A stretch of DNA of 64,000 nt. It comes from Bifidobacterium sp. Lineage in GTDB: Bacteria > Actinomycetota > Actinomycetes > Actinomycetales > Bifidobacteriaceae. The notes under the pieces are model-generated. The model had not been told where the DNA came from. It saw only the letters and a program-made list of their open reading frames with translations, and did no database searches. The stretch is from NCBI RefSeq assembly GCF_022640935.1, contig NZ_JALCCV010000002.1, positions 52,331 through 116,330 of the forward strand, written 5' to 3'. The translations under genes and the position numbers were made by a program. Positions 7,917 to 38,001 of the stretch are shown piece by piece (positions within the stretch are counted from its first letter, which is position 1; every line of letters starts with the position of its first letter).

Positions 7917-10900
7917 ATGGACTGTGCAGCATTCGCCCCAGATACTCGTGACCTGATTCATTCAGGATTGCAGGATCTCGAAGGCGCCTCGCGGCTATTC
8001 GGCGAACTCGACGGTGAGGGCTGGGGGGCGGAACGGCTGCGCACGGTGCTTGCCGCGTTGCAACGCGCCTGCGACCCCGATATTGCGCTGCGGCATCTCG
8101 TCCGTATCGTCAAGGCTGGGCACGCCGCTCCCGATACGTTCTGGAACGAGCCGGCGGCGCTGCGGCGCTTGATCGGCGTGCTCGGCGCTTCGGATGCCAT
8201 GGGGACGCGAATGCGTTTTCGGCCGGCGCTGGTGGCGGCAGCGGCGCGTGACTCCTGCAACAGCCATCTGTTCAATCGGCGCCAGCGCCGCGCGCATATG
8301 CTGCAGGCGGTCGGGGCCGATCCCGCTGATCCTGTCGATTACGCTGGTTTCAACGATGGCCACGATCGCGGCAACCCCGCCCCTCCAGCCTCCACGCTGA
8401 GCCTTGCCGAGGCGACCAGTGCGTTGCGCCTGACCTATGATGACCAGCTTGCGGCGATTATGGCGCAGGATGTGGCGGCGGGCGACCCAGTGGATATCCA
8501 GCGCCGCATCAGCCTGGAGCTTTCCGATCTGGCTGATGCGGCGCTCGAAGGCGCGCTGGCCATTGCGCGGCATGAGGTCGAAGGCAGCGAACGCTGCCGG
8601 TTCGCGATCATCGGCATGGGCAAGCTCGGCGCCCGCGAATTGAATTACGTTTCCGACGTGGACTTGATCTATGTCGTAGAGCCTGCGGACGACGGCGCTG
8701 GCGGCGATGGCGACACTGACACGGGCCAACTCACCAGAATCGGTACGAGAATGGCCACGACCTTGCAGCGCGTGTGCCAATCCCTGGTTCCCGGGGTTGC
8801 TGCGCCGCCGCTATGGCAGATCGACGGCGGGCTGCGGCCTGAGGGCAAGGATGGCCCGCTGGTGCGCAGGCTCGCTTCGCACCGCGAGTACTATCGGCAG
8901 TGGGCGAGCAACTGGGAGTTCCAGGCATTGCTCAAGGCGCGTCCGGCAGCCGGGGACCCGCAATTGGGCGAGGCATACATGGCGATGACGAGACCGCTCG
9001 TCTGGACGGCGGCAAAGCGTGGCAACTTCGTCTACGACTGCCAGCAGATGCGCAAACGGGTCGAGGATCTGATCCCCGGTCCGCTCAAGGAACGCGAGAT
9101 CAAACTCGGCCGCGGCGGCTTGCGCGATGTGGAATTCACTGTTCAGATGCTGCAGCTGGTGCACGGCCGCACCGACGAATCTTTGCGCGTATCCGCGACC
9201 TTGGACGCGCTGCAGGCCCTCTCCGAAGGCGGATACGTTTCACGGCGGCAGGCGGCACGGCTTTCGCTCGATTATCGTTTCGAACGCGTGCTCGAACACC
9301 GCCAGCAGATGTGGGCGCTCAAGCGCACCCACCTGTTCCCTGATCTTGCTGCCGCGCCGGCCAATGGCGTGCGGCAGCGGGCAGCGACAGTTGAAACTCT
9401 CGATCGCAATCCCGAACTGCGTCGGCTCGCGCGGGCGTTCCGGCTGCTTCCCGATGCTTTAGCCGAACGGTTTGAAAGCACTCGCCAGGAAGTGCGGCGG
9501 ATGCACATGGATATCTACTATCGTCCGATGCTGCCGGTCAACGCCCAGCTCGACGACGACCAGATCGTACTGAGCAGGCAGGCGGCGCGCGACCGCTTCG
9601 CATCCATCGGCTTCGGTGACGTCGATGCCGCGATCCGCCATGTCTCCGCGTTGACCGAGGGCGTATCGCGCGCCGCCAAAATCAATCGCTTCCTGCTGCC
9701 CGCCGTGCTGCAGTGGCTAGGCGAGGGACAAAACCCCGACATGGGACTGCTCAACTGGCGGCGGCTTGAGGAGCATTTCGGCACCGGTAGTCCCTATCTC
9801 GGCTTCCTGCGCGATTCGCCGATGGCCGCACGACGCCTGTGCCATGTGCTCTCCAACTCGCGGTTCCTTGGCGATGCGCTCAACAAATCCGTGGAATCGA
9901 TCACGTGGCTGGGCAATGACGAGATGCTCCGTGCGCGTGACAGGGCGAGCTTGGACGTCCAATGTCATGCGACGATGGAACGGTACGCGGATTCCATCGC
10001 GGACTTCGCGCATTCATTGCGCGCCATGCGCCGCCACGAAATCGAACGCATCGGCCTGTCGTGGCTCAGCGGGGCCATGGATTCGGACTCATGTCTGACG
10101 GGCATGACGGATGTTTATGACGCCATCCTCGATGCCGCGCTTGCGTGGGCTATCCGCTCGCAGCGTCGGGCGCTGGGATACTGCGATCCTCCGGCGACCT
10201 TGTGCGTCATCGGCATGGGACGCTATGGCGGACGCGAGGTCAATTTCAGCTCCGATGCCGATGCGATTCTGATCTACCGCTCACGTGACGGCGCGTCGCA
10301 GGAGGATGCCGGGGCGTTTGCCCGTTCGGTTGTCGAAATGCTCAGGAACGTGGTGCTGGGGCCGGTCACGGTCGAACCGAAGATCGATCTCGACCTTGAC
10401 CTGCGTCCCGAAGGTAAGAACGGCCCGCTGGTGCGCTCCTATGCCTCCTGCGAGGAATACTATGCGCAGTGGGCCGCCACTTGGGAGCATCAGGCTCTGC
10501 TCAGAGCGCGCTTCGCCGCCGGGAACCAGCAGCTTGCCGAAGATTTTCTGCGCGATATTGCCGATCCCTTGCGGTACCCGAACGAACCAGTATCCGAATC
10601 CGCCGTGGCTGAAATCAGGAAGCTCAAGGCTCGCATGGAGTCCGAACGGCTGCCACGAGGCGTATCGAGGCAGCGGCATCTGAAGCTCGGCAGAGGAGGT
10701 CTGTCCGACGTTGAATGGACCGTACAACTCATGCAGCTATGCCACGCGGGGCAGAGCGAAGGGCTGCGCGTAAATTCGACGCTGGCGGCTTTGAATGAAC
10801 TGGAACGACTGGGCTGCATCGCATCCACGGACGCGCAAACACTGCGCCGGACTTGGCGCATGTGCACCGATGCACGCAACGGCAACTATCTGTGGACAGG

Positions 10901-26500: not shown

Positions 26501-26590
26501 ATGAAGGCCTCAAGGATCTGATCATCGTCACCGAACTGTTTTTCAGCGTCTTCGTCATCGGCGCAGACTCGTTCATCATCTCGCCGAAGT
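26501..26590 (+). pseudogene. 5' remnant of an MFS transporter
   Basis: ATG AAG GCC TCA AGG, then a frameshift into LIIVTELFFSVFVIGADSFIISP (MFS TM1-like), then similarity is lost. Confidence 0.25.
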
Positions 26591-26922
26591 GCAGCGTCTC
26601 ATGCATCGATCGGCACACGATAATCGATTTCCGATTCCGCGACGATCCCCAGCGGGTAATACCCGCCATGTTCCATGCACACGGACCCAGCCTCCTTTTC
26701 CCCCAGTCTGCAGGCACGCATCAACCCGTATATCAGCCAGCGCGCTGCGCCTTCGTTATTGACGTGTCTCTCATCGCCTGTTCGTTATGCCGGTCCGCGA
26801 TGGCGCCCTGTGCGATATCCCTGCACATCTTCGTAGCCTCTTGCCGCCACACTGTGTCTGCATCGCATCGCTGAGCGGGGAAACATCATCGGCGTTCACC
26901 GGCAGGTCGCCAATATACCTAT

Positions 26923-26961
26923 GTCTGTTGCCAACGGAAGATATGTCTGTTGGCAACAGAC
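26923..26961. promoter_or_regulatory. Two tandem palindromic operator-like sites upstream of the PTS operon
   Basis: GTCTGTTG-C-CAACGGAA (26923-26939) and perfect GTCTGTTG-G-CAACAGAC (26945-26961), 22 bp apart. Confidence 0.6.
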
Positions 26962-27038
26962 TGGATGATGTCTTCAACGTCTGCATTTTCTAATCCGCTC
27001 TGCATTACAGTCTTGGCTTAGCAAGGAGGCATAAGGCT

Positions 27039-28535
27039 ATGACGACTGAACACAGACAGGCACTGATCGATTATCTCATGAACCATCGTGGGTTCGTATC
27101 GGGAGAGCAGCTTTCCGCCGTGCTGGGTGTCTCCACCAAAACCATCACTCGCAATGTCAAGCAGATCAACGCCCAGCATCCGAACGCGCCAATTATCGAA
27201 TCGCAAAGGGGCCGCGGCTATCGTATAGACCGCCAGCATTATCTTGTGACAGCTAATGGCGACAGCAATGCCGAAAGGCTTGTGGATCCGAATCGGATGA
27301 CGTCGATGGGCAGGCGCGACGCCGTCCTGCGCCAGCTGCTGGTTGCATCGCCGCACAGCTATCGCATTGATGCCGTGTGGGGCAAGTTCTATGTCAGTGA
27401 TTCGACCATCTCATCCGATATCAAGATCCTGCGCAGCGTGCTGCAGCAGTACCATCTCATCCTGAACCGCAGTTATGACCAGATCTGGATCGAGGGTTCC
27501 GAAGCGGATGTGCGTCGGTCCATCAACGATTTGCTCATTACCGACAGCGGCATACTCGACGAGGACTTTGGACATACGGATCAGCGTATGCAGCGCAGGG
27601 ACAGTGCATTCGTCACGCACCAGCTCGATCTGATCGAAGAATTGACCCATGCCAAAATCCCTTATCCCTACAATGTGAATCTGTTTTCGCACCTGTACAT
27701 TCTGATCGAGCGGTACCGCGGCGCAGGAGCATTGATCGATACCAGTTCAGGCGATGATGCGCAATTGGTGAGCATGCAACAGCAGGGGCTGGCGAAAGTC
27801 TGTGAGTGCGTGATCAGGAACCTTGACGATTACCTCGATACGACCCTGCCCGGCGTCGAAGTCGCGAATCTGTACCAATACCTGACCTCATCGCGTATCG
27901 ACAGCGGGCGCATCACCGTCAGCGAAATACCTGAGCAAGTCCGCGCTGTCACGGACTTCCTGATCGACAGAGTCAGCGAGGATCCGAGCTACCACGACAT
28001 CGGCAGCAACGATCTCTTCGCAAGCCTCGCCAACCATATCAAGCCTCTGCTCAATCGACTGGAAAATCACATCAGCGTGAAGAACAACCTCCTCGAACAG
28101 ATCAAGCTTGAATACCCGCATCTTTTCGATGTCGTGCGCGAGGCATCGGCGCAGCTAGTGCAACGCTACCGCCTCAACTCCATCGATGATGAGGAAAATG
28201 GCTTCATCACCGTCTATTTCGCCCAGGCGTTGGAGAACATGCATGCCCCAATCAACATCCTTCTGGTATGCACGACCGGCTTGGGTACGGCGCAACTGCT
28301 GAAGGCCAAAATAGAACGACGCTTCTCCGAACTCAACATCGTAGAAACAGTTGCCGTCCGCGATCTGAAGGACTCGCTCGCCAGCCATGACGAGGTCGAT
28401 CTTGTGATTTCCACAGTCGGGCTGCCTTCGAGCGTGCATATTGCGACATTGGTAGTCAGCGCAATGTTCACTGGCGAGGATCAAGAGCAATTGGAACACG
28501 AGGTCGATCGCATTCGCAAGGGGATGAGCCGATGA
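27039..28535 (+). CDS. PRD-domain transcriptional regulator (LicR/MtlR/ManR-like: HTH, PRD, EIIB domain)
   Basis: N-terminal HTH (SGEQLSAVLGVSTKTITRNVKQIN...GRGY), PRD with LANHI and ENGFITVYF, EIIB-like LVCTTGLGTAQLL. Confidence 0.88.
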   Translation: MTTEHRQALIDYLMNHRGFVSGEQLSAVLGVSTKTITRNVKQINAQHPNAPIIESQRGRGYRIDRQHYLVTANGDSNAERLVDPNRMTSMGRRDAVLRQLLVASPHSYRIDAVWGKFYVSDSTISSDIKILRSVLQQYHLILNRSYDQIWIEGSEADVRRSINDLLITDSGILDEDFGHTDQRMQRRDSAFVTHQLDLIEELTHAKIPYPYNVNLFSHLYILIERYRGAGALIDTSSGDDAQLVSMQQQGLAKVCECVIRNLDDYLDTTLPGVEVANLYQYLTSSRIDSGRITVSEIPEQVRAVTDFLIDRVSEDPSYHDIGSNDLFASLANHIKPLLNRLENHISVKNNLLEQIKLEYPHLFDVVREASAQLVQRYRLNSIDDEENGFITVYFAQALENMHAPINILLVCTTGLGTAQLLKAKIERRFSELNIVETVAVRDLKDSLASHDEVDLVISTVGLPSSVHIATLVVSAMFTGEDQEQLEHEVDRIRKGMSR

Positions 28536-29011
28536 AATCGCTGATTGCGTGGGAGCCGCAATGGTGTGCGCACGACGCTGACTCGCTGGTCGAATCCATG
28601 GCGCAATACCTGGAGAGCCGCGGGCTCATCAATGACGGCAAGCGCGTCGCCGCCGCTCTGCGGCAGCGGGAGAGCTTTGGCAACACGTTGATCGCCGACA
28701 ACCTCGCAGTCCCGCATGCGCAGAGTGATGCCGCTGACGAAGCCATCATGCTGTTCGTCAAACTGCGTGAGGCATTGTCCGGCTGGCAGGGCGTTGCAAC
28801 AGTTGACAGGTTGATTGTCACGCTGCTCCCGGAACGGCCTAGCGAGCACGACGCGGCCGTGCTGAAAAATTTTTTCCAGCGACTTGCCGATGAGAGGATA
28901 ACGCAGACATTCTCGGTAGGCGAATGCGACGAAGTGCGGGAAACCCTGCTGCAGTTGCTTCCGGACTGTGCCGCAGGCCGGAAGCGCAGAAGATCTCCAA
29001 CGACCCAATAG
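28532..29011 (+). CDS. PTS EIIA (fructose/mannitol family), copy 1
   Basis: LRQRESFGNTLIADNLAVPHA (phospho-His motif); ATGA overlap with the regulator stop. Confidence 0.8.
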   Translation: MKSLIAWEPQWCAHDADSLVESMAQYLESRGLINDGKRVAAALRQRESFGNTLIADNLAVPHAQSDAADEAIMLFVKLREALSGWQGVATVDRLIVTLLPERPSEHDAAVLKNFFQRLADERITQTFSVGECDEVRETLLQLLPDCAAGRKRRRSPTTQ

Positions 29012-29082
29012 ATTCCACGCTCAACATCCAACTCTGTAGCACATTCACTCCGTACATTCCATCAACAACAAGGAGAACAACC

Positions 29083-29544
29083 ATGAGCGAACCATCGCTG
29101 AGCACTGTCCTGGACCGCAACACGATCGTCACCGATCTTGCGGCGCGCAGCAAGGACGATGTCATCGCCGCCTTGACACAGCTGCTGCTCAAGCAGGGCT
29201 ATATCGAATCGCAGGAGGCATTCATCGCAGCCGTCCATGAGCGTGAGCAGGAGGGTGCCACCGGGATAGGCGGCCACGTTGCCATTCCCCACGGCAGAAG
29301 CGACACGGTGCGCAAAAACGGGATGGCCATCGCGATTCTCCGGAACGAAATCCCTTGGGAGTCCCTCGACGAGACCGGCGCGAAAGCCGTGGTGCTGTTC
29401 ACCGTCGGCTCGAATGACGATGGGGCGCAGGAGCATCTCAAGCTGTTGTCGATGTTCGCACGCAAATTGGCCAAATCCCAAGTTGTTGAAGCGCTGCTTC
29501 ACGCTCGAAGCGCCGATGACGTCATTGGAGCATTCGCCGACTGA
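29083..29544 (+). CDS. PTS EIIA (fructose family), copy 2
   Basis: EREQEGATGIGGHVAIPHGRS, HLKLLSMFARKL; AAGGAG RBS. Confidence 0.9.
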   Translation: MSEPSLSTVLDRNTIVTDLAARSKDDVIAALTQLLLKQGYIESQEAFIAAVHEREQEGATGIGGHVAIPHGRSDTVRKNGMAIAILRNEIPWESLDETGAKAVVLFTVGSNDDGAQEHLKLLSMFARKLAKSQVVEALLHARSADDVIGAFAD

Positions 29545-29661
29545 AAACCCGCTGTCGCGCCGCAAACTGCTGTTGCGCCGAACGTCGCACTGCTAGCGAA
29601 GCGGCAGATCAGCGCCACATCCCTACCCACGTATAACCACACTAACCAAAGGAGAAACACC

Positions 29662-29973
29662 ATGAAAATCGTCGGAGTGAGCGCATGCACCATCGGCATA
29701 GCACACACCTATCTAGCGCAGCAGAAAGTCGAGGATGCGGCCAAAGCCGCTGGCGACGACGTCAAGATCGAGACCCAGGGAACCATCGGCATCGAGAATG
29801 CCTTGACGCCCGAAGACATCGCCGAAGCCGACATCGTGTTGCTTGCGGTCGACGTCAAGATCGCGAACGAGGAGCGCTTCAACGGCAAGAAAGTCGTCAA
29901 GGTATCCACCGACACGGCGATCAAATCGCCGAACAAGCTCGTGGCCAAGCTTCACGAGATCGTCGGCAAATAA
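29662..29973 (+). CDS. PTS EIIB (fructose family)
   Basis: MKIVGVSACTIGIAHTYLA (phospho-Cys), KIETQGTIG; AAAGGAG RBS. Confidence 0.92.
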   Translation: MKIVGVSACTIGIAHTYLAQQKVEDAAKAAGDDVKIETQGTIGIENALTPEDIAEADIVLLAVDVKIANEERFNGKKVVKVSTDTAIKSPNKLVAKLHEIVGK

Positions 29974-30011
29974 CACCACTACCATCACCATCACAAGACA
30001 AGGACGTCATT

Positions 30012-31133
30012 ATGACTATGAAAGAATTCTGGAAAAAAGCTAATTTCAAAGGACACCTGCTGACCGCCATATCCTATCTGATACCGATTGTGTGCGGCGC
30101 TGGTTTCCTCATCGCCATCGGCATGGCTTTCGGCGGGAAATCCCAAGACTCGCTGGTCATGGGGAAGTTCGACTTCTTCCAGGCGCTGGCGACGCTTGGC
30201 GGCAAGGCGCTGGGGCTGCTTCCGGTCATCATCGCGACTGGCATTGCATTTTCCATTGCGGGAAAACCTGGCATCGCTCCCGGTTTCGTGACCGGTCTGG
30301 CCTCAGTCGCCATCAGCGCAGGATTCATCGGAGGGCTCGTCGGTGGCTATATCGCCGGTTGGCTCGCCTTCGCCGTGCTGCGCTACTTCAAGGTGCCGAG
30401 CTGGGCGAAAGGACTGATGCCGACATTGATCGTGCCTTTCATCGCCTCGTTTGCAAGCGGATTGATCATGGTTTACGTCATCGGCACACCCATCTCCTGG
30501 TTCACGAACTGGCTTACGAATCTGCTTGCCAGCATGAACGGCGTGTCCAACCTCATTCTCGGCGCTGTGATCGGAACTCTCAGCATCGTCGATTTCGGCG
30601 GCCCGATCAACAAGACCGTCTTCGCCTTCGCGTTGACTTTGCAGGCCCAAGGCATCAACGGCCCGGTCACGGCGCTGCAGCTGACCAACACCGCCACGCC
30701 CATCGGCTTTGGTTTCGCATTCCTCGTCGCCAAGCTGATCCGCAAGAACATCTACACGCATGAGGAAATCGAAACCCTCAAATCCACTGTTCCCATGGGC
30801 GTGGTCAACATCGTCGAAGGCTCCATCCCTATCGTGCTCAACGATTTGATCCGTGGCGTCGTAGCTGCAGGCTTGGGCGGCATGGTCGAGGGCGCGATTT
30901 TGATGAGTCTGGCCCACGGCGAGGGCGCGACCGTGCCATTCGGCGGATTCCTGATGCTGCCGACGATGGGCTCGAATTGGTGGGTCGGCCTCCTCGCCAT
31001 TGCGGCGAACGTGCTGGTCACCGGCATCGTGTACGCCCTGATCAAAAAGGATCTCGGATCACAGCCGTCGGTTGCAAAAACAGCCGTCTCGGATGAGGCC
31101 GACATCGCGCTGGATGACATCCAGGTTATGTAA
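30012..31133 (+). CDS. PTS EIIC (fructose family)
   Basis: HLLTAISYLIPIVCGAGFLIAIG, GKPGIAPG, DFGGPINK, VEGSIP, PFGG. Confidence 0.92.
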   Translation: MTMKEFWKKANFKGHLLTAISYLIPIVCGAGFLIAIGMAFGGKSQDSLVMGKFDFFQALATLGGKALGLLPVIIATGIAFSIAGKPGIAPGFVTGLASVAISAGFIGGLVGGYIAGWLAFAVLRYFKVPSWAKGLMPTLIVPFIASFASGLIMVYVIGTPISWFTNWLTNLLASMNGVSNLILGAVIGTLSIVDFGGPINKTVFAFALTLQAQGINGPVTALQLTNTATPIGFGFAFLVAKLIRKNIYTHEEIETLKSTVPMGVVNIVEGSIPIVLNDLIRGVVAAGLGGMVEGAILMSLAHGEGATVPFGGFLMLPTMGSNWWVGLLAIAANVLVTGIVYALIKKDLGSQPSVAKTAVSDEADIALDDIQVM

Positions 31134-31165
31134 AAGACTGCGAATTTCAAGAATCGAGTAAGATA

Positions 31166-31906
31166 ATGCCTCAACAAATACAGCTTTCCCCCTCGTTGAT
31201 GACGATGGACCTTGACCAATTCAAGGAGCAGATCGGTTTCCTGAACGACAAGGTAAATTCATATCATGTCGACATCATGGACGGTCATTTCGTTCCCAAT
31301 CTCACATTGTCGCCGTGGTTCATCGAGCAGGTCAAGAAAATATCCGATGTGCCGCTCTCTGCTCATATGATGGTCACCGACGCCCCATTCTGGGTCTCTC
31401 GGCTTATCGAAGTGCGCTGCGACGCGATTTGCTTTCCTTCGGAAGTGGCGAACGGGGTCGCTTTCAGCATGATCGACGACATCCACGCCGCCGGACTTCA
31501 GGCCGGAGCCGTGCTCAACCCCGAGACCTCGATCGAGACGGTGCTGCCATATATCGATCTACTCGACAAGATCACTATCATGACCATCGACCCGGGCTTC
31601 GCCGGACGGCGTTTCCTCGAAGGAACGCTCGGCAAGATCGTCAGGCTCAGACAGCTGCGCGAAGAGCATGGATACGGATATGCAATCGAAATGGACGGTT
31701 CCACGAATCTTAAGCACTGGAAGATGATTTCGGATGCCAGGCCGGATATCTATGTCATTGGCCGCAGCGGTTTGTTCGGGCTGACCAACAGCATCGAAGA
31801 CTCTTGGAACCAGATGACGCGCGAATATGAGCAGTCCACCGGGTTCCCGTTCGACAACGGCATATACCGAGCCGAATACTCGGGGGCGGCTTCGCGCGTG
31901 GCTTGA
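31166..31906 (+). CDS. alsE: D-allulose-6-phosphate 3-epimerase (ribulose-phosphate 3-epimerase superfamily)
   Basis: SPSLMTMDLDQFKEQIGF, HVDIMDGHFVPNLTLSP, NGVAFSMIDDI, LNPET, KITIMTIDPGFAG, GRSGLF. These match the AlsE subtype rather than Rpe. Confidence 0.85.
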   Translation: MPQQIQLSPSLMTMDLDQFKEQIGFLNDKVNSYHVDIMDGHFVPNLTLSPWFIEQVKKISDVPLSAHMMVTDAPFWVSRLIEVRCDAICFPSEVANGVAFSMIDDIHAAGLQAGAVLNPETSIETVLPYIDLLDKITIMTIDPGFAGRRFLEGTLGKIVRLRQLREEHGYGYAIEMDGSTNLKHWKMISDARPDIYVIGRSGLFGLTNSIEDSWNQMTREYEQSTGFPFDNGIYRAEYSGAASRVA

Positions 31907-32037
31907 GAACTGAGCCGTTGTACAGTGCCGAGAGACAAGGTAGTTCTGCTGATCGTACCAAGCATTTTCGCCTCTTGGCACATCTAGGGGTACCTCTTCC
32001 CCTCCTTGGTATTGCTCGATAACGAATGTTTCGCGCT

Positions 32038-32080
32038 CGCCTGCGCAGTCCGCATATGGATTGCGCAGGCGGGCGTCTTT
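32038..32080 (+). terminator. Hairpin downstream of the PTS-alsE operon
   Basis: CGCCTGCGCAGTCC-GCATAT-GGATTGCGCAGGCG, then GGCGTCTTT. Confidence 0.45.
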
Positions 32081-32268
32081 GGTTGCAGCGCCGCGCATAG
32101 AAGATTCGGCGGAATGCATGCCAAAGTGAACTTTGGCTTACGCGGGGGTGATATCTCTCCGACTTCCTGCGCGTTCGCCGTACGCCGGGGCCACACTGGA
32201 ATCGCCAACCTGCCGATGATGCTCCTTGCGGGCGCATCGGCGTATCCGATATGAGGAATGGATGTGGA

Positions 32269-35145
32269 ATGAGAACGGCAACACAACGACACCGAACACA
32301 GCGCGATAGAGCGTTCAGAGCTATAACGGGCGCTGCGGCGCTGGCGATGCTCCTGAGCGGCGGGGCAGTAGCCCAGGCGGCGCAGCCTGCGACGGCATAC
32401 CCGGCTAGCAAGCCGGATATCACCGCTCTGCTGGGCGAATTCAATAATTGGTGGACACCGAAGAAAGTCGTCAACAATACGGCCAATGGCGATGCGTTCC
32501 GAGGCAGCGTGACAGATGCTGGGCGCTCCGTGCTTGGATATAGCGATGACACGGTCGTCGCTATCAACAATCATGCAGCCAAGGACACCACGAAAGTGGA
32601 TGGCACCTACACGCAGGCGCAGCGTGCCGCATTCGATGCGAGTGACAGCCCGGCCAACGCGATTACCTCGTATTCGACTGCGTTGGGCGACACCATCGGC
32701 AAATACCTGCGCGAAGGCCTGAGCGACGGCTCGCTGCCCAAAACGAACGCGCTCGTATTCGATGCCTCCAGCCCGGTGGCAACGTCCGGCTTCGTCGGCA
32801 CCGGCAGTGCCAAGAAGGACTTCAACTATCCGCGTCCATATTTCACCAAGGCGGATCAGGGCATGGACCGCACCATCGGCGGCGACACCGATCTCAACGG
32901 ACTCAAGCCCGAGCTGGACATCATTCATATTCCGATGTTTTCGCAGGACGGAGAAGAATTCGGCGAGGACTACACGGATTATCAGGAGCCTTCGCAGGCC
33001 TTCCCCTCCGGCCATACCACGAAGGCCTACAACCGCGGCATCGCGCTATCCACGCTGCTGCCTGAACTCGGGCCGGAGATCATGGCCCGCGCTTCCGAAG
33101 CGGGCAATAACCGCGTCGTGCTCGGCGTGCACTATCCAATGGATGTGATGGGCGGGCGCATCGCCGCCACGGCCGGTTCGAGCGCATTGTGGTCCGATGC
33201 CGGGTTCCGCACGAATGAGCTGCTGCCGGCGCACAATGAACTCGAGAATTACATCGCTGCCCGCTGCAAGGCTGATGGCAACGGCTCCACGGTCGAGGAA
33301 TGCGTCACCAAGCTCGGCGCGAACGCCGACAAGGGTTACGTCAACACCTTCACCGACGTGGTTTCAACCAAGCCGGTGACCGATCGCTCCAGCGCCATCG
33401 AGGCTTACACGTCTCGCATGACCTACGGGTTCGCGCAGACCTCCGCAGCCGGTCAGGCGCCGAAGGTCCCTGCAGGAGCCGAGGATCTGCTGCTCACTGC
33501 ATTCCCGGATCTGAACGCCGCGCAGCGCAAGCAGGTGCTCGAGGCCTCCGAGATTGATTCCGGCTACCCGCTGGACGCCTCCTCGCAGGGCTTCGAACGC
33601 CTCAATCTCGCTAAGGCCTACAGCGCCGATGTGACGCTGAGCGCCGACGGCAAGACGATTCTCGCCATCAACTTCGGCAACGCCGCGCCCAAGGTCACCA
33701 AAGTCAGCAGCACTGATGCCATCACGAATCTGCTCAAGGATTTCAACCGCTACTTCGTTGCCGGCGTGGGCGTCACCGACGAGGGCAAGGGCGTGCTGAG
33801 CCACGACGACAAGCTCACCGAGTCCATCAATCAAGCGGCATTCGGCGCGGACGGCAAGACCGCCCAGGACAAGCGCGCACTGTCCGACGCGCAGATGAAT
33901 TCCACCAACACGCTGTACGACGCGCTCGGTCCGGTGCTGGGAACCTACTTCAAGCAGGCTGCGGACTCCGGCAAGCTGCCCAAAACCGAGCAGTACCTCG
34001 AGGACATGAACAAATCCGCTTCCACCGGTAAAGCCAAGGCCTGGTATCAGCATCCTCGCCCTTACGTGGATCGTGTGAACTACAACGGTACCACGCTGGA
34101 TATGAACGGCACCGCACAGACGCTGAACATCAAGAAGGTCCCCGGATACGAGAACTTCGACTGGGGCGACGGCGAGCCGCTCGACAACGAATACGACGGG
34201 CTGTACAACTCCGGCTCCTTCCCCTCCGGCCACACCACCTTCGCATTCACGCAAGGCACCGGTCTGGCGAGCATCCTGCCTGAATTGGGCCCGCAGATCA
34301 TGACACGCGTCTCCGAGGCAGGCAACAACCGCATCGTGCTCGGCGTGCACTACCCGCTCGATATCCTCGGCGGGCACATCGCAGGCCAGTACGGCGTGGC
34401 GAACGCACTGAATGACGACTCCATGCGCAAGGAGAATGCGGCTGCCCGCACCGAACTGGTCAACTACCTGACCGCTCAGTGCAAGGCCGACGGCCACGGC
34501 GACACCCTGCAATCCTGCATCGACGCCACCGGCGCCAACGACGCGAATGGCTACGCCAACGCATTCACCGACGAGGTCTCGACCAAGCCGGTCACCGATC
34601 TGAAGTCCGCATTGGCCGCATATCAGGCTCGCATGTCTTACGGGTTCGACAAGACGGGCACCGCCGGGCAGGCTCCGGTCGTGCCTGATGCCGCTGTCAA
34701 CCTGCTGGACAACGTCGAGGCCTTCAAGGCTTTGAGCGCCAACCAGAAGAAGCAGGTGATCGCCGCGACGGAGGGCGAATCCGGCTATCCGCTGGACGCC
34801 ACGAGCGAAGGCTGGGCACGTGTGAACCTCACTGCTGCATACAGCGCCAAAGTGACGCTGAGTGCCGATGGCAAGAATGTGGTCAAGGTCGAGCCAGGGC
34901 AGAAAGTCGCTTCGGTGGTCCGTGAGAAGACACCGGTGCAGCCTGGCGGCAACGGCAACAATAACAACCAGCCGACCAAGCCCGGCAAGAACGGTGCCGG
35001 TGCAAACGGCAGCGGCACGCCTCAGGCTGCCAATGGGGAACTGGCTTCCACCGGTGCCAGTGTTTCTGCGGCTGTCGTAGCGGTCGCAGTGCTTGCCCTG
35101 ATGGGATCTGCTGCCATGATCGCGTCGCGCCGGCGCCAAGACTGA
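32269..35145 (+). CDS. Secreted, sortase-anchored protein with two PAP2/acid phosphatase domains
   Basis: Signal peptide (...AAALAMLLSGGAVAQA); two full motif sets K...RPY / FPSGHT / NRxVLGVHYPxD; C-terminal LASTG, TM helix and RRR tail. Confidence 0.88.
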   Translation: MRTATQRHRTQRDRAFRAITGAAALAMLLSGGAVAQAAQPATAYPASKPDITALLGEFNNWWTPKKVVNNTANGDAFRGSVTDAGRSVLGYSDDTVVAINNHAAKDTTKVDGTYTQAQRAAFDASDSPANAITSYSTALGDTIGKYLREGLSDGSLPKTNALVFDASSPVATSGFVGTGSAKKDFNYPRPYFTKADQGMDRTIGGDTDLNGLKPELDIIHIPMFSQDGEEFGEDYTDYQEPSQAFPSGHTTKAYNRGIALSTLLPELGPEIMARASEAGNNRVVLGVHYPMDVMGGRIAATAGSSALWSDAGFRTNELLPAHNELENYIAARCKADGNGSTVEECVTKLGANADKGYVNTFTDVVSTKPVTDRSSAIEAYTSRMTYGFAQTSAAGQAPKVPAGAEDLLLTAFPDLNAAQRKQVLEASEIDSGYPLDASSQGFERLNLAKAYSADVTLSADGKTILAINFGNAAPKVTKVSSTDAITNLLKDFNRYFVAGVGVTDEGKGVLSHDDKLTESINQAAFGADGKTAQDKRALSDAQMNSTNTLYDALGPVLGTYFKQAADSGKLPKTEQYLEDMNKSASTGKAKAWYQHPRPYVDRVNYNGTTLDMNGTAQTLNIKKVPGYENFDWGDGEPLDNEYDGLYNSGSFPSGHTTFAFTQGTGLASILPELGPQIMTRVSEAGNNRIVLGVHYPLDILGGHIAGQYGVANALNDDSMRKENAAARTELVNYLTAQCKADGHGDTLQSCIDATGANDANGYANAFTDEVSTKPVTDLKSALAAYQARMSYGFDKTGTAGQAPVVPDAAVNLLDNVEAFKALSANQKKQVIAATEGESGYPLDATSEGWARVNLTAAYSAKVTLSADGKNVVKVEPGQKVASVVREKTPVQPGGNGNNNNQPTKPGKNGAGANGSGTPQAANGELASTGASVSAAVVAVAVLALMGSAAMIASRRRQD

Positions 35146-35251
35146 GACGCCTGAATCTTTGGTTTCCGGGTTGCGATTCCGCTGTCCCATGTGGCAACAA
35201 CTGATATAAGGTCAGGCATCGTCACGTCCGGCAGCGGAATCACCCGGTATG

Positions 35252-35771: not shown

Positions 35772-35917
35772 CTATATCTTTGGAAGTCATTGGCGAATAA
35801 AAATGTCTGTTCCGGAACGAGAACCGACTCCTTCGTTCCAGAGCAGACAATTAGAGCGCAACCGCGTCGCGCGATTAAAACGTGTGGCGCAGTGCGCGAA
35901 TCACGCCGAATCGCGAA

Positions 35918-37228
35918 TCAGCGCTCGAAGTCCACGTCCTTGCTTTCCTTGAACGTCAGCAGGGCGACTAGTGCCAGCACGGACATGGTGCCCATGTACC
36001 AGCCGAGCGCCCAGATGCCATAGCTGGTCACAAGCCATGTGGCGATGGTCGGAGCGAACGCGCCACCGAGGATGGCTGCGAGGTTGTAGGAGAAGCCTGC
36101 GCCGGAGTAGCGCACTTTCATGGGGAACATCTCAGGCAGGTAGGCGCCGCAGGGGCCGAACAGGCTGCCCATGACCACGAAGCCGAGGCAAAGGAACACC
36201 AGCGCGCCGGCGAAATTGCGTTGGCCGGAGAGCAGCGCCGGGCTGAGCAGGCTGAAAACTAGAGCAGCCGCAGTCACGACAAGCAGCACGCGCTTACGGC
36301 CGAACTTGTCAGCCTGCAGGCAGCTGACGACGATGAACGTAGCGAAGAACAGCGTGGAGACCACCTGCATAAGCAGGTATTCCGTCTGTGTGAATCCAAG
36401 GCCTTTGACTCCGTATGACAAGGACCAGGTGCCGAGGATGTAGAAGAGGGTGTAGGTAACGCCCATGGCGAACATGCCCAGCACGACTTGCCTCCAGTAG
36501 TGGCGCAGTTCGAACAGGGGATGGCGGGCGGTGCGCTGCTCGGCCGTGGCCTTGCGATAGACCGGGGTCTCCTGCATGCGGGCGCGCACATACAGCCCGA
36601 CGACCACCAGCAGGGAGGACAGCAGGAACGGCATCCGCCAGCCCCACTGCTGCATCTGGTCCGCGCTGAGCACGGAGGTCAGGATCAGATTCAGGCCGTA
36701 AGCGAACAGGAAGCCGATCGGCGCCCCGAGATTCGGGAAGGAACCGTAGAGGGCGCGTTTGTTCTTCGGTGCGTTCTCGGTGGCCACCAGCGCGGCGCCG
36801 GACCATTCACCGGCGAGCCCTAGGCCTTGGCATACGCGGCACAGGCACAGCAGGATCACCGACCATATGCCGATCTGGGCGTACCCGGGCAGCACGCCGA
36901 CCAGGAAGGTCGAGACGCCCATGACCAGCAGGGCCACGACCAGCGTCTTCTTGCGGCCGAGTTTGTCGCCGAAGTGCCCGAAGAGCAGGGAGCCGAAAGG
37001 GCGCGCCAGGAATGAGATGGCGAAGGTCAGCAGCGATTGCAGGGTGCCGACCACCGGGTCGGACTTGGGGAAAAATACGGCGGAGAAGTAGCTCGCCGCG
37101 GCGATACTGTAGCAGTAGTTGTCGTAGAACTCGATGGCCGTGCCGACCATCGACGCCCCGATGATCTCGCCTACCGAATCGTGCTTCAGCGCGACTGCGG
37201 AATTTGCGGATAATGCTGTATCTGTCAT
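35918..37228 (-). CDS. MFS metabolite:H+ symporter (MHS family)
   Basis: GTAIEFYD, FLARPFGSLLFGHFGDKLGRK, GLAGEWSGA, ADKFGRK, EMFPMKVRYSG. Confidence 0.92.
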   Translation of the reverse strand: MTDTALSANSAVALKHDSVGEIIGASMVGTAIEFYDNYCYSIAAASYFSAVFFPKSDPVVGTLQSLLTFAISFLARPFGSLLFGHFGDKLGRKKTLVVALLVMGVSTFLVGVLPGYAQIGIWSVILLCLCRVCQGLGLAGEWSGAALVATENAPKNKRALYGSFPNLGAPIGFLFAYGLNLILTSVLSADQMQQWGWRMPFLLSSLLVVVGLYVRARMQETPVYRKATAEQRTARHPLFELRHYWRQVVLGMFAMGVTYTLFYILGTWSLSYGVKGLGFTQTEYLLMQVVSTLFFATFIVVSCLQADKFGRKRVLLVVTAAALVFSLLSPALLSGQRNFAGALVFLCLGFVVMGSLFGPCGAYLPEMFPMKVRYSGAGFSYNLAAILGGAFAPTIATWLVTSYGIWALGWYMGTMSVLALVALLTFKESKDVDFER

Positions 37229-38001
37229 GTGACGATCCTTTGTTCTGATATAGCTGGTTTGGATGTGGCTGCGTTGGAGGGATCCGCCGGATTCTCAGCA
37301 GTCATGCGGACATGTGGAAAACCGCGGATGTCAGAGGCGTCGCTGCGTTGGATGTGCATATGCACGCGCCAGAATTGGCAGCGAGGCGAAGAGAAGCAGT
37401 GTGCGCAAGACTCGGCTGGGAAGGGTAACGTCGCGCTCACCATGGCACGGGCGCGTATAACACATACACGCAGCTTGGGCCATGTGCATCACCTGCAGAG
37501 ATGCAGATGCATCGGCACGCAGATGCCAATGGCCAGATGCAGCAGCGGTCGCCATAAGTAAGGCAAGGCCCTTGCCCATGCCCGCATAGCAACGAAAGTA
37601 CCTAGCGCAACTTCATATGCGCATTGCCAGGAATGAAAATATGTGGTTTGGTGATCAGCGCGTCGTGAAGGACGCGATGATAATTCGACGCGCGATTCCA
37701 ACCATGCGGATGGCTTCGTGCTGCCGATTGTCAACGTGCCTCATGCCGTGACCTCTTTCCACAGATAAGCATCTTCAGATGCCCGGGAGCCAAATGATGT
37801 GCTCCGTTAGCCGACATTATGTGACGTGTCGAAGACATCGCCTTCGCGCGCGCCGTAATCCGCGTGTCGCGATTGTGCATCGGGCGGCCCTGCGGCCCCA
37901 ATCCACTCGTTGTCCCGTTGCGCACATAATGTGTGATTCTGTTGACTCACAGTCCAGGCCTGCCCCTTAGTAACGCGGGCCCCGATAGCAAAGGACCTCC
38001 C

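Follow-up and report, generated by a model that had tools for sequence, protein, structure and literature searches.

A six-gene fructose-family phosphotransferase cassette with an AlsE-clade epimerase in a Bifidobacterium: a candidate route for D-allulose utilisation

How could a bacterium take up a rare ketohexose and deliver it to central metabolism with six genes? This question is raised by a stretch of 64,000 nucleotides from a Bifidobacterium sp. genome (contig NZ_JALCCV010000002.1, positions 52,331 to 116,330 of the forward strand; this whole stretch is called the window here), in which the listing of open reading frames (ORFs) contains six genes of the same direction on the + strand at positions 27039-31906. 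The first-pass annotation, made from the letters of the window, had read them as a PRD regulator, two EIIA proteins, EIIB and EIIC of a phosphoenolpyruvate-dependent phosphotransferase system (PTS) and an AlsE-type epimerase, together forming a candidate operon for D-allulose (D-psicose) utilisation, and all six genes are indeed present at these positions. The cassette comprises a sugar importer, one epimerase and its own regulator, it is intact in this relative of Bifidobacterium subtile, and automatic annotation already names its parts. We consider the balance to lean modestly towards a horizontally moved, self-contained cassette, in which the PTS imports D-allulose as the 6-phosphate and AlsE epimerises it to fructose-6-phosphate; the identity of the substrate and its phosphorylation at C6 are what we infer in this proposal.

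The epimerase scores 321.7 bits against the curated equivalog model for D-allulose 6-phosphate 3-epimerase (NF007266; cut-off 271), while it stays below the cut-off of the ribulose-phosphate 3-epimerase (Rpe) equivalog TIGR01163 (153.5 against 212.6 bits). A sequence search of the PDB returned Escherichia coli AlsE (3ct7) with 213 bits and the best Rpe with 113 bits, and the AlphaFold model of the protein (mean predicted local distance difference test score 84) has 3ct7 as its first structural match (template-modelling scores 0.80/0.89, 45 % identity); overall, the enzyme is 45-48 % identical to AlsE of E. coli and Klebsiella. The metal-binding and catalytic set H34, D36, H67 and D177 aligns with that of 3ct7 (H34, D36, H67 and D176 in E. 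coli) and is invariant in an alignment of 20 sequences, and H34 and H67 are 100 % conserved in 40 cassette homologues. The beta-8 loop, G199-R-S-G202, aligns with the G-T-S-G of the Enterobacteriaceae AlsE proteins; one position of this loop is missing from the canonical Rpe of this genome (L001) and from that of potato (1rpx). Chan and co-workers are said to have described in 2008 that this extra residue of AlsE compared with Rpe lengthens the phosphate-binding pocket for a hexulose-6-phosphate, and reportedly also that AlsE and Rpe are promiscuous toward each other's substrates. Furthermore, the epimerase carries S49, Y129, T140 and D142, which appear to match substitutions of the AlsE clade (PMC12216980), the map between the two numberings being inferred.

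The phylogeny agrees with these scores. In a quick maximum-likelihood tree of 108 sequences the PTS-adjacent epimerases form a single clade with 100 % support and the canonical Rpe proteins form the outgroup. The PTS-linked clade groups with two gammaproteobacterial AlsE groups (Shimodaira-Hasegawa-like approximate likelihood-ratio test, SH-aLRT, 82-86, unstarred), one of which holds sequences from Enterobacter, Klebsiella and Raoultella. A separate canonical Rpe is encoded elsewhere in the genome (contig C2:128725-129309). Equivalog scores, PDB match, tree, beta-8 loop and fold all place the protein with AlsE and not with Rpe, as the first reading had proposed, and an activity on allulose-6-phosphate is predicted for it from its sequence.

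The three transport proteins are assigned by their family scores to a fructose-family Enzyme II (TC 4.A.2): the transport EIIA reaches 126.2 bits with TIGR00848 (cut-off 103.5), EIIB 102.9 bits with TIGR00829 (cut-off 76.85) and EIIC 195.8 bits with TIGR01427 (cut-off 157.55). EIIA H70, in an AIPHG motif, and EIIB C9, in the motif ACTxGIAHTY, are 100 % conserved over 35-40 homologous cassettes, and over the same cassettes the phosphorylation and catalytic residues taken together are 97-100 % conserved, which bears out the earlier statement that all motifs are intact. EIIC is about equally far from FruA (203 bits), PRK10478 (179) and MngA (170). Its identity is 77-97 % to the proteins of other Bifidobacteriaceae that bear the cassette with an intact EIIC, 81 % to that of a Limosilactobacillus metagenome-assembled genome (MAG) and 56-68 % to those of other Bacillota. 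Within the fructose family, Bacillus subtilis ManP, which yields mannose-6-phosphate, and E. coli MngA phosphorylate their substrates at C6. From purely stereochemical considerations, a phosphorylation of D-allulose at C6 would be conceivable: 2-ketofuranoses are pseudo-symmetric, and a flipped D-psicofuranose would put C6 at the C1 position of a tagatose-like ligand. A linked 1-phosphofructokinase was not found, no extra family being widely recurrent among 20 clustered loci, and a PfkB-type kinase is absent from the gene tables of Lactiplantibacillus plantarum and Vibrio; the Pfam scan covered selected neighbours. In the Bacillota loci L010, L012, L014 and L018 a fructose-type EIIB gene precedes EIIA and another follows it; the bifidobacterial cassettes contain one.

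A scan of one genome per species yielded 80 AlsE-like loci. Among those of other genomes with an AlsE at least 61 % identical to that of the window, 18 of 20 carry regulator, EIIA, EIIB, EIIC and AlsE in the same order, and the divergent EIIA-like gene gave a tblastn match in 13 of these 18; of the two exceptions one is cut by a contig end and the other, in a Lachnospiraceae MAG, has an ABC transporter context. Carriers include B. subtile, B. psychraerophilum and B. indicum among the bifidobacteria, the Limosilactobacillus MAG, Levilactobacillus and L. plantarum among the Lactobacillaceae, the enterococci Enterococcus faecalis, E. raffinosus, E. mundtii and E. malodoratus together with Vagococcus, and moreover Oceanobacillus, Gracilibacillus, Terribacillus, Metabacillus, Corticicoccus and Vibrio gazogenes; the PTS-linked AlsE clade also includes L. 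pentosus and Liquorilactobacillus. None of the gammaproteobacterial AlsE loci that were fetched (44-48 % identity) has this PTS. The cassette is thus a widespread mobile module and not peculiar to this genome.

Clustering of the neighbouring ORFs showed that the six core families alone recur: in about 40 loci from three phyla the cassette has no conserved partner among kinases, isomerases, dehydrogenases or aldolases. The minimal two-step route from sugar to central metabolite, which the first-pass annotation had suggested from one locus, gains support from this restricted conservation. That the six-gene core travels alone between phyla indicates that the PTS product is the epimerase substrate and that the epimerase product is a central metabolite. 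In line with the earlier reading, there is no kinase, mutase or RpiB in the operon, which also lacks an ABC transporter according to the ORF listing and Pfam, and the genome (92 % complete) contains no RpiB/LacAB homologue (PF02502). The lack of RpiB makes the isomerisation of allose-6-phosphate unavailable and argues against D-allose; since the core cassettes moreover contain neither isomerase nor dehydrogenase, both D-allose and allitol are unlikely substrates. Additional genes do occur in some cassettes. In E. faecalis and E. mundtii the genes for EIIC and AlsE are separated by one with a TAL_FSA domain (Pfam), and in L. plantarum an FSA/TalC-family gene after AlsE passes the equivalog model TIGR00875 (309 bits). 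As FSA/TalC enzymes use fructose-6-phosphate, these neighbours fit fructose-6-phosphate as the product. Transketolase and transaldolase genes are absent from most cassettes, including all bifidobacterial ones and that of Vibrio.

In the mechanism that we propose, the general PTS proteins EI and HPr would pass the phosphate of phosphoenolpyruvate to His70 of the fructose-family EIIA, which would hand it to Cys9 of EIIB. EIIC would import a rare 2-ketohexose, most probably D-allulose, and release it as the 6-phosphate, and the AlsE-clade epimerase would invert C3 to yield fructose-6-phosphate, on which the phosphoketolase of the bifid shunt acts directly. Both general proteins, for which the first pass had called for a check, are present in the genome on contig C49, EI at C49:8389-10173 (TIGR01417, 418.6 against 341.7 bits) and HPr at C49:10161-10469 (TIGR01003, 90.1 against 47.9 bits); the phosphoketolase Xfp is present as well, and besides the cassette EIIC the genome holds one other PTS_EIIC match. 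Expression would probably be driven by a single promoter 5' of the regulator gene. Its product, of Mga/PRD type, would recognise a conserved upstream palindrome, phosphorylation of His218 and His333 in the PRD regions and of Cys411 in the EIIB-like domain would control how active it is, and the detached EIIA-like protein, via His62, may serve as its phospho-relay partner. The binding site, the control by phosphorylation and the service of this EIIA by the native EI and HPr are likewise proposals of ours.

Several points weigh against D-allulose and its C6 phosphorylation. The branch to the PTS-linked AlsE clade is long (0.91) and this clade has the changes S65, W51 and R200 near the active site, so that its specificity could differ from that of the known AlsE enzymes. 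S65 stands in place of the Asp that is usual for the D-x-H motif throughout the family, two positions ahead of the metal ligand His67; W51 and R200, where the AlsE proteins of Enterobacteriaceae have Phe and Thr, are conserved in the PTS-linked clade. Transketolase genes, which a fructose-6-phosphate product does not need, are neighbours of the cassette in L. plantarum and in five other loci and hint at a link to the pentose phosphate pathway or to heptuloses. Classical FruA phosphorylates C1 to give fructose-1-phosphate, and as EIIC is equidistant from FruA and MngA, homology does not allow to infer whether C1 or C6 is the target. That the EI of the window genome is compatible with the cassette is assumed, and the EI linked to the cassette elsewhere is 35 % identical to it. 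Moreover, a full-text literature search gave no paper on the cassette and no experiment tying it to a sugar, and D-allulose is scarce in nature, which is odd for so widely kept a cassette.

These points open the way to other substrates. The cassette might serve a different ketose with a 3-epimer, for instance D-allo-heptulose leading to sedoheptulose-7-phosphate, the pair D-sorbose/D-tagatose, or a natural derivative that nobody has considered so far. In keeping with this are the residues specific to the clade (S65, W51 and R200) and the length of the branch that separates it from characterised AlsE enzymes; the transketolase and transaldolase neighbours would suit sedoheptulose-7-phosphate as a product, and carriers are common in plant-sugar, nectar, kefir and marine habitats, in which D-allulose is not known to be abundant. 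However, with the minimal cassette of Bifidobacterium and Vibrio the product has to feed straight into central metabolism, tagatose-6-phosphate and sorbose-6-phosphate need LacC/LacD-type enzymes, none of which is linked, and there is no positive evidence for heptuloses, so that we regard such a ketose as unlikely.

Import of a pentulose such as D-ribulose, with the epimerase as an operon-specific enzyme for ribulose-5-phosphate and xylulose-5-phosphate feeding phosphoketolase or transketolase, appears improbable. The AlsE-type beta-8 loop is one residue longer than that of Rpe, with the reported meaning for the pocket, the protein lies below the rpe equivalog cut-off, a canonical Rpe is already encoded in the genome, and most cassettes do without transketolase or transaldolase, including all from bifidobacteria and Vibrio. 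These arguments stand against the transketolase and TalC/FSA genes beside the cassette in several Bacillota, the reported cross-promiscuity of AlsE and Rpe, and the fact that Xfp cleaves xylulose-5-phosphate too.

Comparably improbable is a PTS that yields the 1-phosphate, or that imports D-allose or allitol, with an unlinked mutase, kinase, isomerase or dehydrogenase supplying allulose-6-phosphate. The 1-phosphate is the product of the classical fructose PTS, an AlsE gene in the Lachnospiraceae MAG (L021) lies beside an ABC permease and two genes of mutase/phosphatase superfamilies, and a Gat-family PTS with a Zn-dehydrogenase is found just upstream of the cassette in L. plantarum; yet about 40 loci show no conserved partner of this kind, the genome has no RpiB/LacAB homologue, and a six-gene module that crosses phyla should be functionally self-sufficient. 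Finally, that this genome holds a remnant of the cassette that is silent or has lost its function is very improbable, for although its lineage is without the cassette-linked ptsH-ptsI of 13 other Bifidobacteriaceae, the six frames are intact, conservation extends to the functional residues, both operator and terminator have been kept, and DNA identity of 87 % against protein identities of 81-97 % to B. subtile is consistent with purifying selection.

The layout of the operon (Table 1) is compact. The genes are separated successively by a 4-nt overlap and by gaps of 71, 117, 38 and 32 nt, an AGGAG-type ribosome-binding site precedes each of the six, and the start codon of EIIC is at 30012 and not at 30009. 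The cassette had been described as AT-richer than the core genes; its GC content is lower than that of the whole window (56.3 against 60.4 %), but the GC content at third codon positions (GC3; 0.69-0.79) lies inside the background of 0.74 +/- 0.05, so that the description is only weakly true.

Table 1. Coordinates of the cassette genes and the adjoining signals in the window (nt, nucleotides; aa, amino acids)
Feature	Positions	Strand	Basis or remark
Operator-like tandem palindromes GTCTGTTGCCAACGGAA and GTCTGTTGGCAACAGAC	26923-26961	+	78-116 nt 5' of the regulator ATG
PRD-containing regulator, 498 aa	27039-28535	+	Pfam HTH_11, Mga HTH, PRD, PTS_IIB-like
Stand-alone EIIA(Fru/Ntr)-like protein, 159 aa	28532-29011	+	PF00359, 51 bits
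Fructose-family transport EIIA, 153 aa, His70	29083-29544	+	TIGR00848
Fructose-family EIIB, 103 aa, Cys9	29662-29973	+	TIGR00829
Fructose-family EIIC permease, 373 aa	30012-31133	+	TIGR01427
AlsE-clade (predicted) hexulose-6-phosphate 3-epimerase, 246 aa	31166-31906	+	NF007266
Terminator-like hairpin with 20-bp stem, closing the operon	32033-32076	+	Hairpin in sequence

The regulator consists of HTH_11, Mga HTH, a degenerate PRD1, PRD2 and an EIIB(Gat)-like domain and has no EIIA domain. This order matches that of the MtlR/LicR/ManR and Mga/AtxA-type regulators, with which it also shares one conserved His per PRD and a conserved Cys in the EIIB-like domain: H218 in the PRD1 region, H333 in PRD2 and C411 in the EIIB-like motif CTTGxGT are 97-100 % conserved in 40 homologues. 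It differs from the Mga/MafR subfamily in that it scores 80.7 bits with NF053736 (AcpB/EbpR/MafR), below the cut-off of 130, and its PDB matches, the PRD of LicT and AtxA (E = 0.0011), are weak. The stand-alone EIIA-like protein is translationally coupled to the regulator, the stop codon of the one and the ATG of the other overlapping as ATGA. Its H62 is 100 % conserved among the homologous cassettes, and in most cassettes of Bacillota, Bifidobacteriaceae and Vibrio the EIIA-like protein (about 145-160 aa) likewise has a gene of its own, which either overlaps that of the regulator or directly adjoins it. The first reading had counted two EIIA proteins, and both are of EIIA type; the first, however, is most likely a regulatory phospho-partner of the PRD regulator and not a transport EIIA, as judged from its sequence features. 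A second transport EIIA was rejected on the basis of the ATGA coupling, the divergence between species (23-46 % identity for the EIIA-like protein and 44-66 % for the transport EIIA), a TIGR00848 score of 55.9 bits, below the cut-off, and the PtsN regulatory proteins as its top PDB matches. In MtlR and LicR the EIIA domain is fused C-terminally, whereas in nearly every cassette looked at it is a separate, translationally coupled protein, which may be the detached counterpart of the C-terminal domain of such activators.

A palindrome related to the tandem copies of the window, GTCYnnTG(n0-2)CAnnRGAC, recurs 5' of the regulator gene in loci of both Bacillota and Bifidobacteriaceae. The strict pattern is found in 22 of 40 loci, with 0.01 expected per locus, and in 21 of these 22 it lies 81-94 nt 5' of the regulator ATG (in L100 it is further upstream); a relaxed pattern occurs in 30 of 40 loci against a background of 0.055. 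The palindrome is a putative binding site and likely the operator of an autoregulated six-gene transcript. Taken together, a joint reading suggests itself, to which we give somewhat less than an even chance. This would be the first dedicated D-allulose PTS, binding a flipped ketofuranose and phosphorylating C6, so that AlsE alone would lead on to fructose-6-phosphate, combined with a hitherto undescribed two-piece PRD regulation in which an Mga-like protein and a detached EIIA(Ntr)-like partner would act at the conserved palindrome, and it would have spread as a cross-phylum plug-in over Bacillota, Bifidobacteriaceae and Vibrionaceae, often with its own ptsH-ptsI in bifidobacteria.

Among the 236 Bifidobacteriaceae species genomes, an AlsE above the curated cut-off is encoded in 31, and 21 of those 31 together with the window genome carry the full PTS cassette (22 of 236 species). 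The AlsE proteins of the bifidobacterial cassettes are 68-95 % identical to that of the window, the highest value being that of B. subtile, and the copy in genome G112 looks degraded. About ten other species (L118-L132; e.g., G047, G074, G076, G050 and G063) hold a distinct AlsE-like clade, 35-40 % identical to the AlsE of the window, some members of which pass NF007266 and which has no fructose-family PTS alongside. Directly 3' of alsE, ptsH-ptsI is found in 13 Bifidobacteriaceae species (loci bearing this pair: L006:10914-12835, L007:5416-7352, L101-L104, L106, L108-L114 and L117) and not in the window genome or B. subtile. This cassette-linked EI, distant from that of the window genome as given above, is 43 % identical to an EI of Levilactobacillus, which points to two unrelated EI/HPr lineages in circulation among the Bifidobacteriaceae. 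In the window genome ptsI (-) and ptsH (+) are divergent, with a head-to-head overlap of 13 nt (10161-10173) between the two predicted ORFs, unlike the co-oriented ptsH-ptsI after the cassette in other bifidobacteria; the pair (L134, C49 8389-10469) lies at the very end of a 10.5-kb contig.

In the AlsE tree, 21 bifidobacterial sequences form one group (SH-aLRT 90), which is nested among Liquorilactobacillus, Sporolactobacillus, Ligilactobacillus and Limosilactobacillus within a larger clade dominated by Bacillota. A careful tree of EIIC unites the Bifidobacteriaceae with the Limosilactobacillus MAG (100/99), with L. plantarum next (96/84). Both trees support the view that genes were exchanged with Lactobacillaceae and that the cassette ultimately came from Bacillota; the acquisition from Firmicutes that had been presumed is thus supported by the phylogenies of AlsE and EIIC. 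Base composition was rejected as weak evidence for a transfer, since GC3 is within the background. The host, taken for a Bifidobacterium at the first pass, proved to be one that is close to B. subtile, given the 95 % identity in AlsE noted above and the 87 % DNA identity of window positions 26578-35154 to B. subtile LMG 11597.

Which known systems does the cassette resemble? The D-allose/D-allulose pathway of E. coli K-12 and Klebsiella (als operon alsRBACEK; AlsE structure 3CT7) likewise has as its final enzyme an AlsE-clade allulose-6-phosphate 3-epimerase that produces fructose-6-phosphate and that shares metal ligands and the extended beta-8 loop with the enzyme of the window. It uses the ABC transporter AlsBAC, the kinase AlsK, the isomerase RpiB/AlsI and the RpiR-type repressor AlsR, whereas in the cassette a fructose-family PTS replaces transporter and kinase, an isomerase is lacking and the regulator is of Mga/PRD type. 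Reportedly, lmo0734-lmo0739 of Listeria monocytogenes lineage II is a PTS-coupled cassette for the aldose D-allose, which is said to comprise a beta-glucoside-type EIIABC, a phospho-beta-glucosidase and an RpiB-type isomerase and to end in an AlsE-type epimerase yielding fructose-6-phosphate. The window cassette has neither the Bgl-type EIIABC nor the phospho-beta-glucosidase nor the isomerase, and RpiB is absent from the genome as well. Compared with FruA, ManP, MngA and the Frv, Frw and Fry systems, the EIIA, EIIB and EIIC of the cassette pass the same family models and are separate polypeptides as in Fry and Frw, but they are not equivalogs of any named member of the family and have no linked 1-phosphofructokinase, and the logic of the pathway requires a 6-phosphate product as in ManP and MngA, unlike the 1-phosphate of FruA. 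Clostridium innocuum shares the concept: it grows on D-allulose, and its AlsE homologue ci04568, encoded next to PTS genes proposed to import and phosphorylate allulose, complements an E. coli delta-alsE strain (PMC12216980). As far as can be judged from the published text, in which the PTS family is unstated, the pathway differs from that of the cassette, and the neighbourhood of ci04568 includes a fructose-bisphosphate aldolase (PMC12216980). As ci04568 is 35 % identical to Klebsiella AlsE (PMC12216980), it probably belongs to another AlsE clade; C. innocuum ci04257 has 50 % identity to Klebsiella AlsE.

The cassette is therefore best described as a PTS-coupled version of the known AlsE route that is widespread and mobile. 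A census of AlsE in 116 species, the only systematic one, with ten species of Bacillota and no Actinomycetota (PMC12216980), appears to lack most or all of the PTS-linked clade, which is largely unrecorded in the allulose literature that was searched. The one phenotypic hint in that literature, which could not be tied to the cassette, is that isolates of E. cecorum all oxidise D-psicose on Biolog plates (PMC4924287). The marketing of D-allulose as a sweetener builds on the assumption that it is used by few gut microbes; if the proposal is true, allulose fermentation in gut, food and probiotic bacteria such as E. faecalis, L. plantarum and several bifidobacteria would be far wider than the census implies. 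If the function holds, the cassette would moreover be a simple genetic marker of allulose fermentation and a small building block of six genes with which allulose use or sensing could be engineered. It also offers a clean test case for the C6 phosphorylation of a ketohexose by a fructose-family EIIC, and the detached EIIA partner would be a new arrangement of PRD regulation.

Some of the loci have surroundings that are worth recording. In L. plantarum the cassette and both flanks form a larger rare-sugar/polyol island, with a DeoR-linked galactitol-family PTS and the Zn-dependent dehydrogenase upstream (L135:401-3641) and FSA/TalC, transketolase and a YidA-like sugar phosphatase downstream (L135:8706-12274). 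In the Lachnospiraceae MAG (L021:5683-10687) an AlsE of the PTS-linked clade (61 % identical) has no PTS beside it and is preceded by a fused ABC permease, a Metalloenzyme-superfamily protein (phosphopentomutase/iPGM-like) and a double His_Phos_1 protein, an arrangement that may be an alternative route involving a phosphomutase. In the window, synteny with B. subtile sets in at 26578, covers the whole cassette and takes in the PAP2 gene that follows it, and on the left it breaks at about 26.5 kb; left of this break (about 26518) B. subtile has an MFS transporter, and the window has a GNAT acetyltransferase and an aldo/keto reductase. A segment of about 2.1 kb at 35775-37909, just after a tRNA-Gly, is extra compared with B. 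subtile LMG 11597 and encodes an MFS sugar transporter (35918-37228, - strand).

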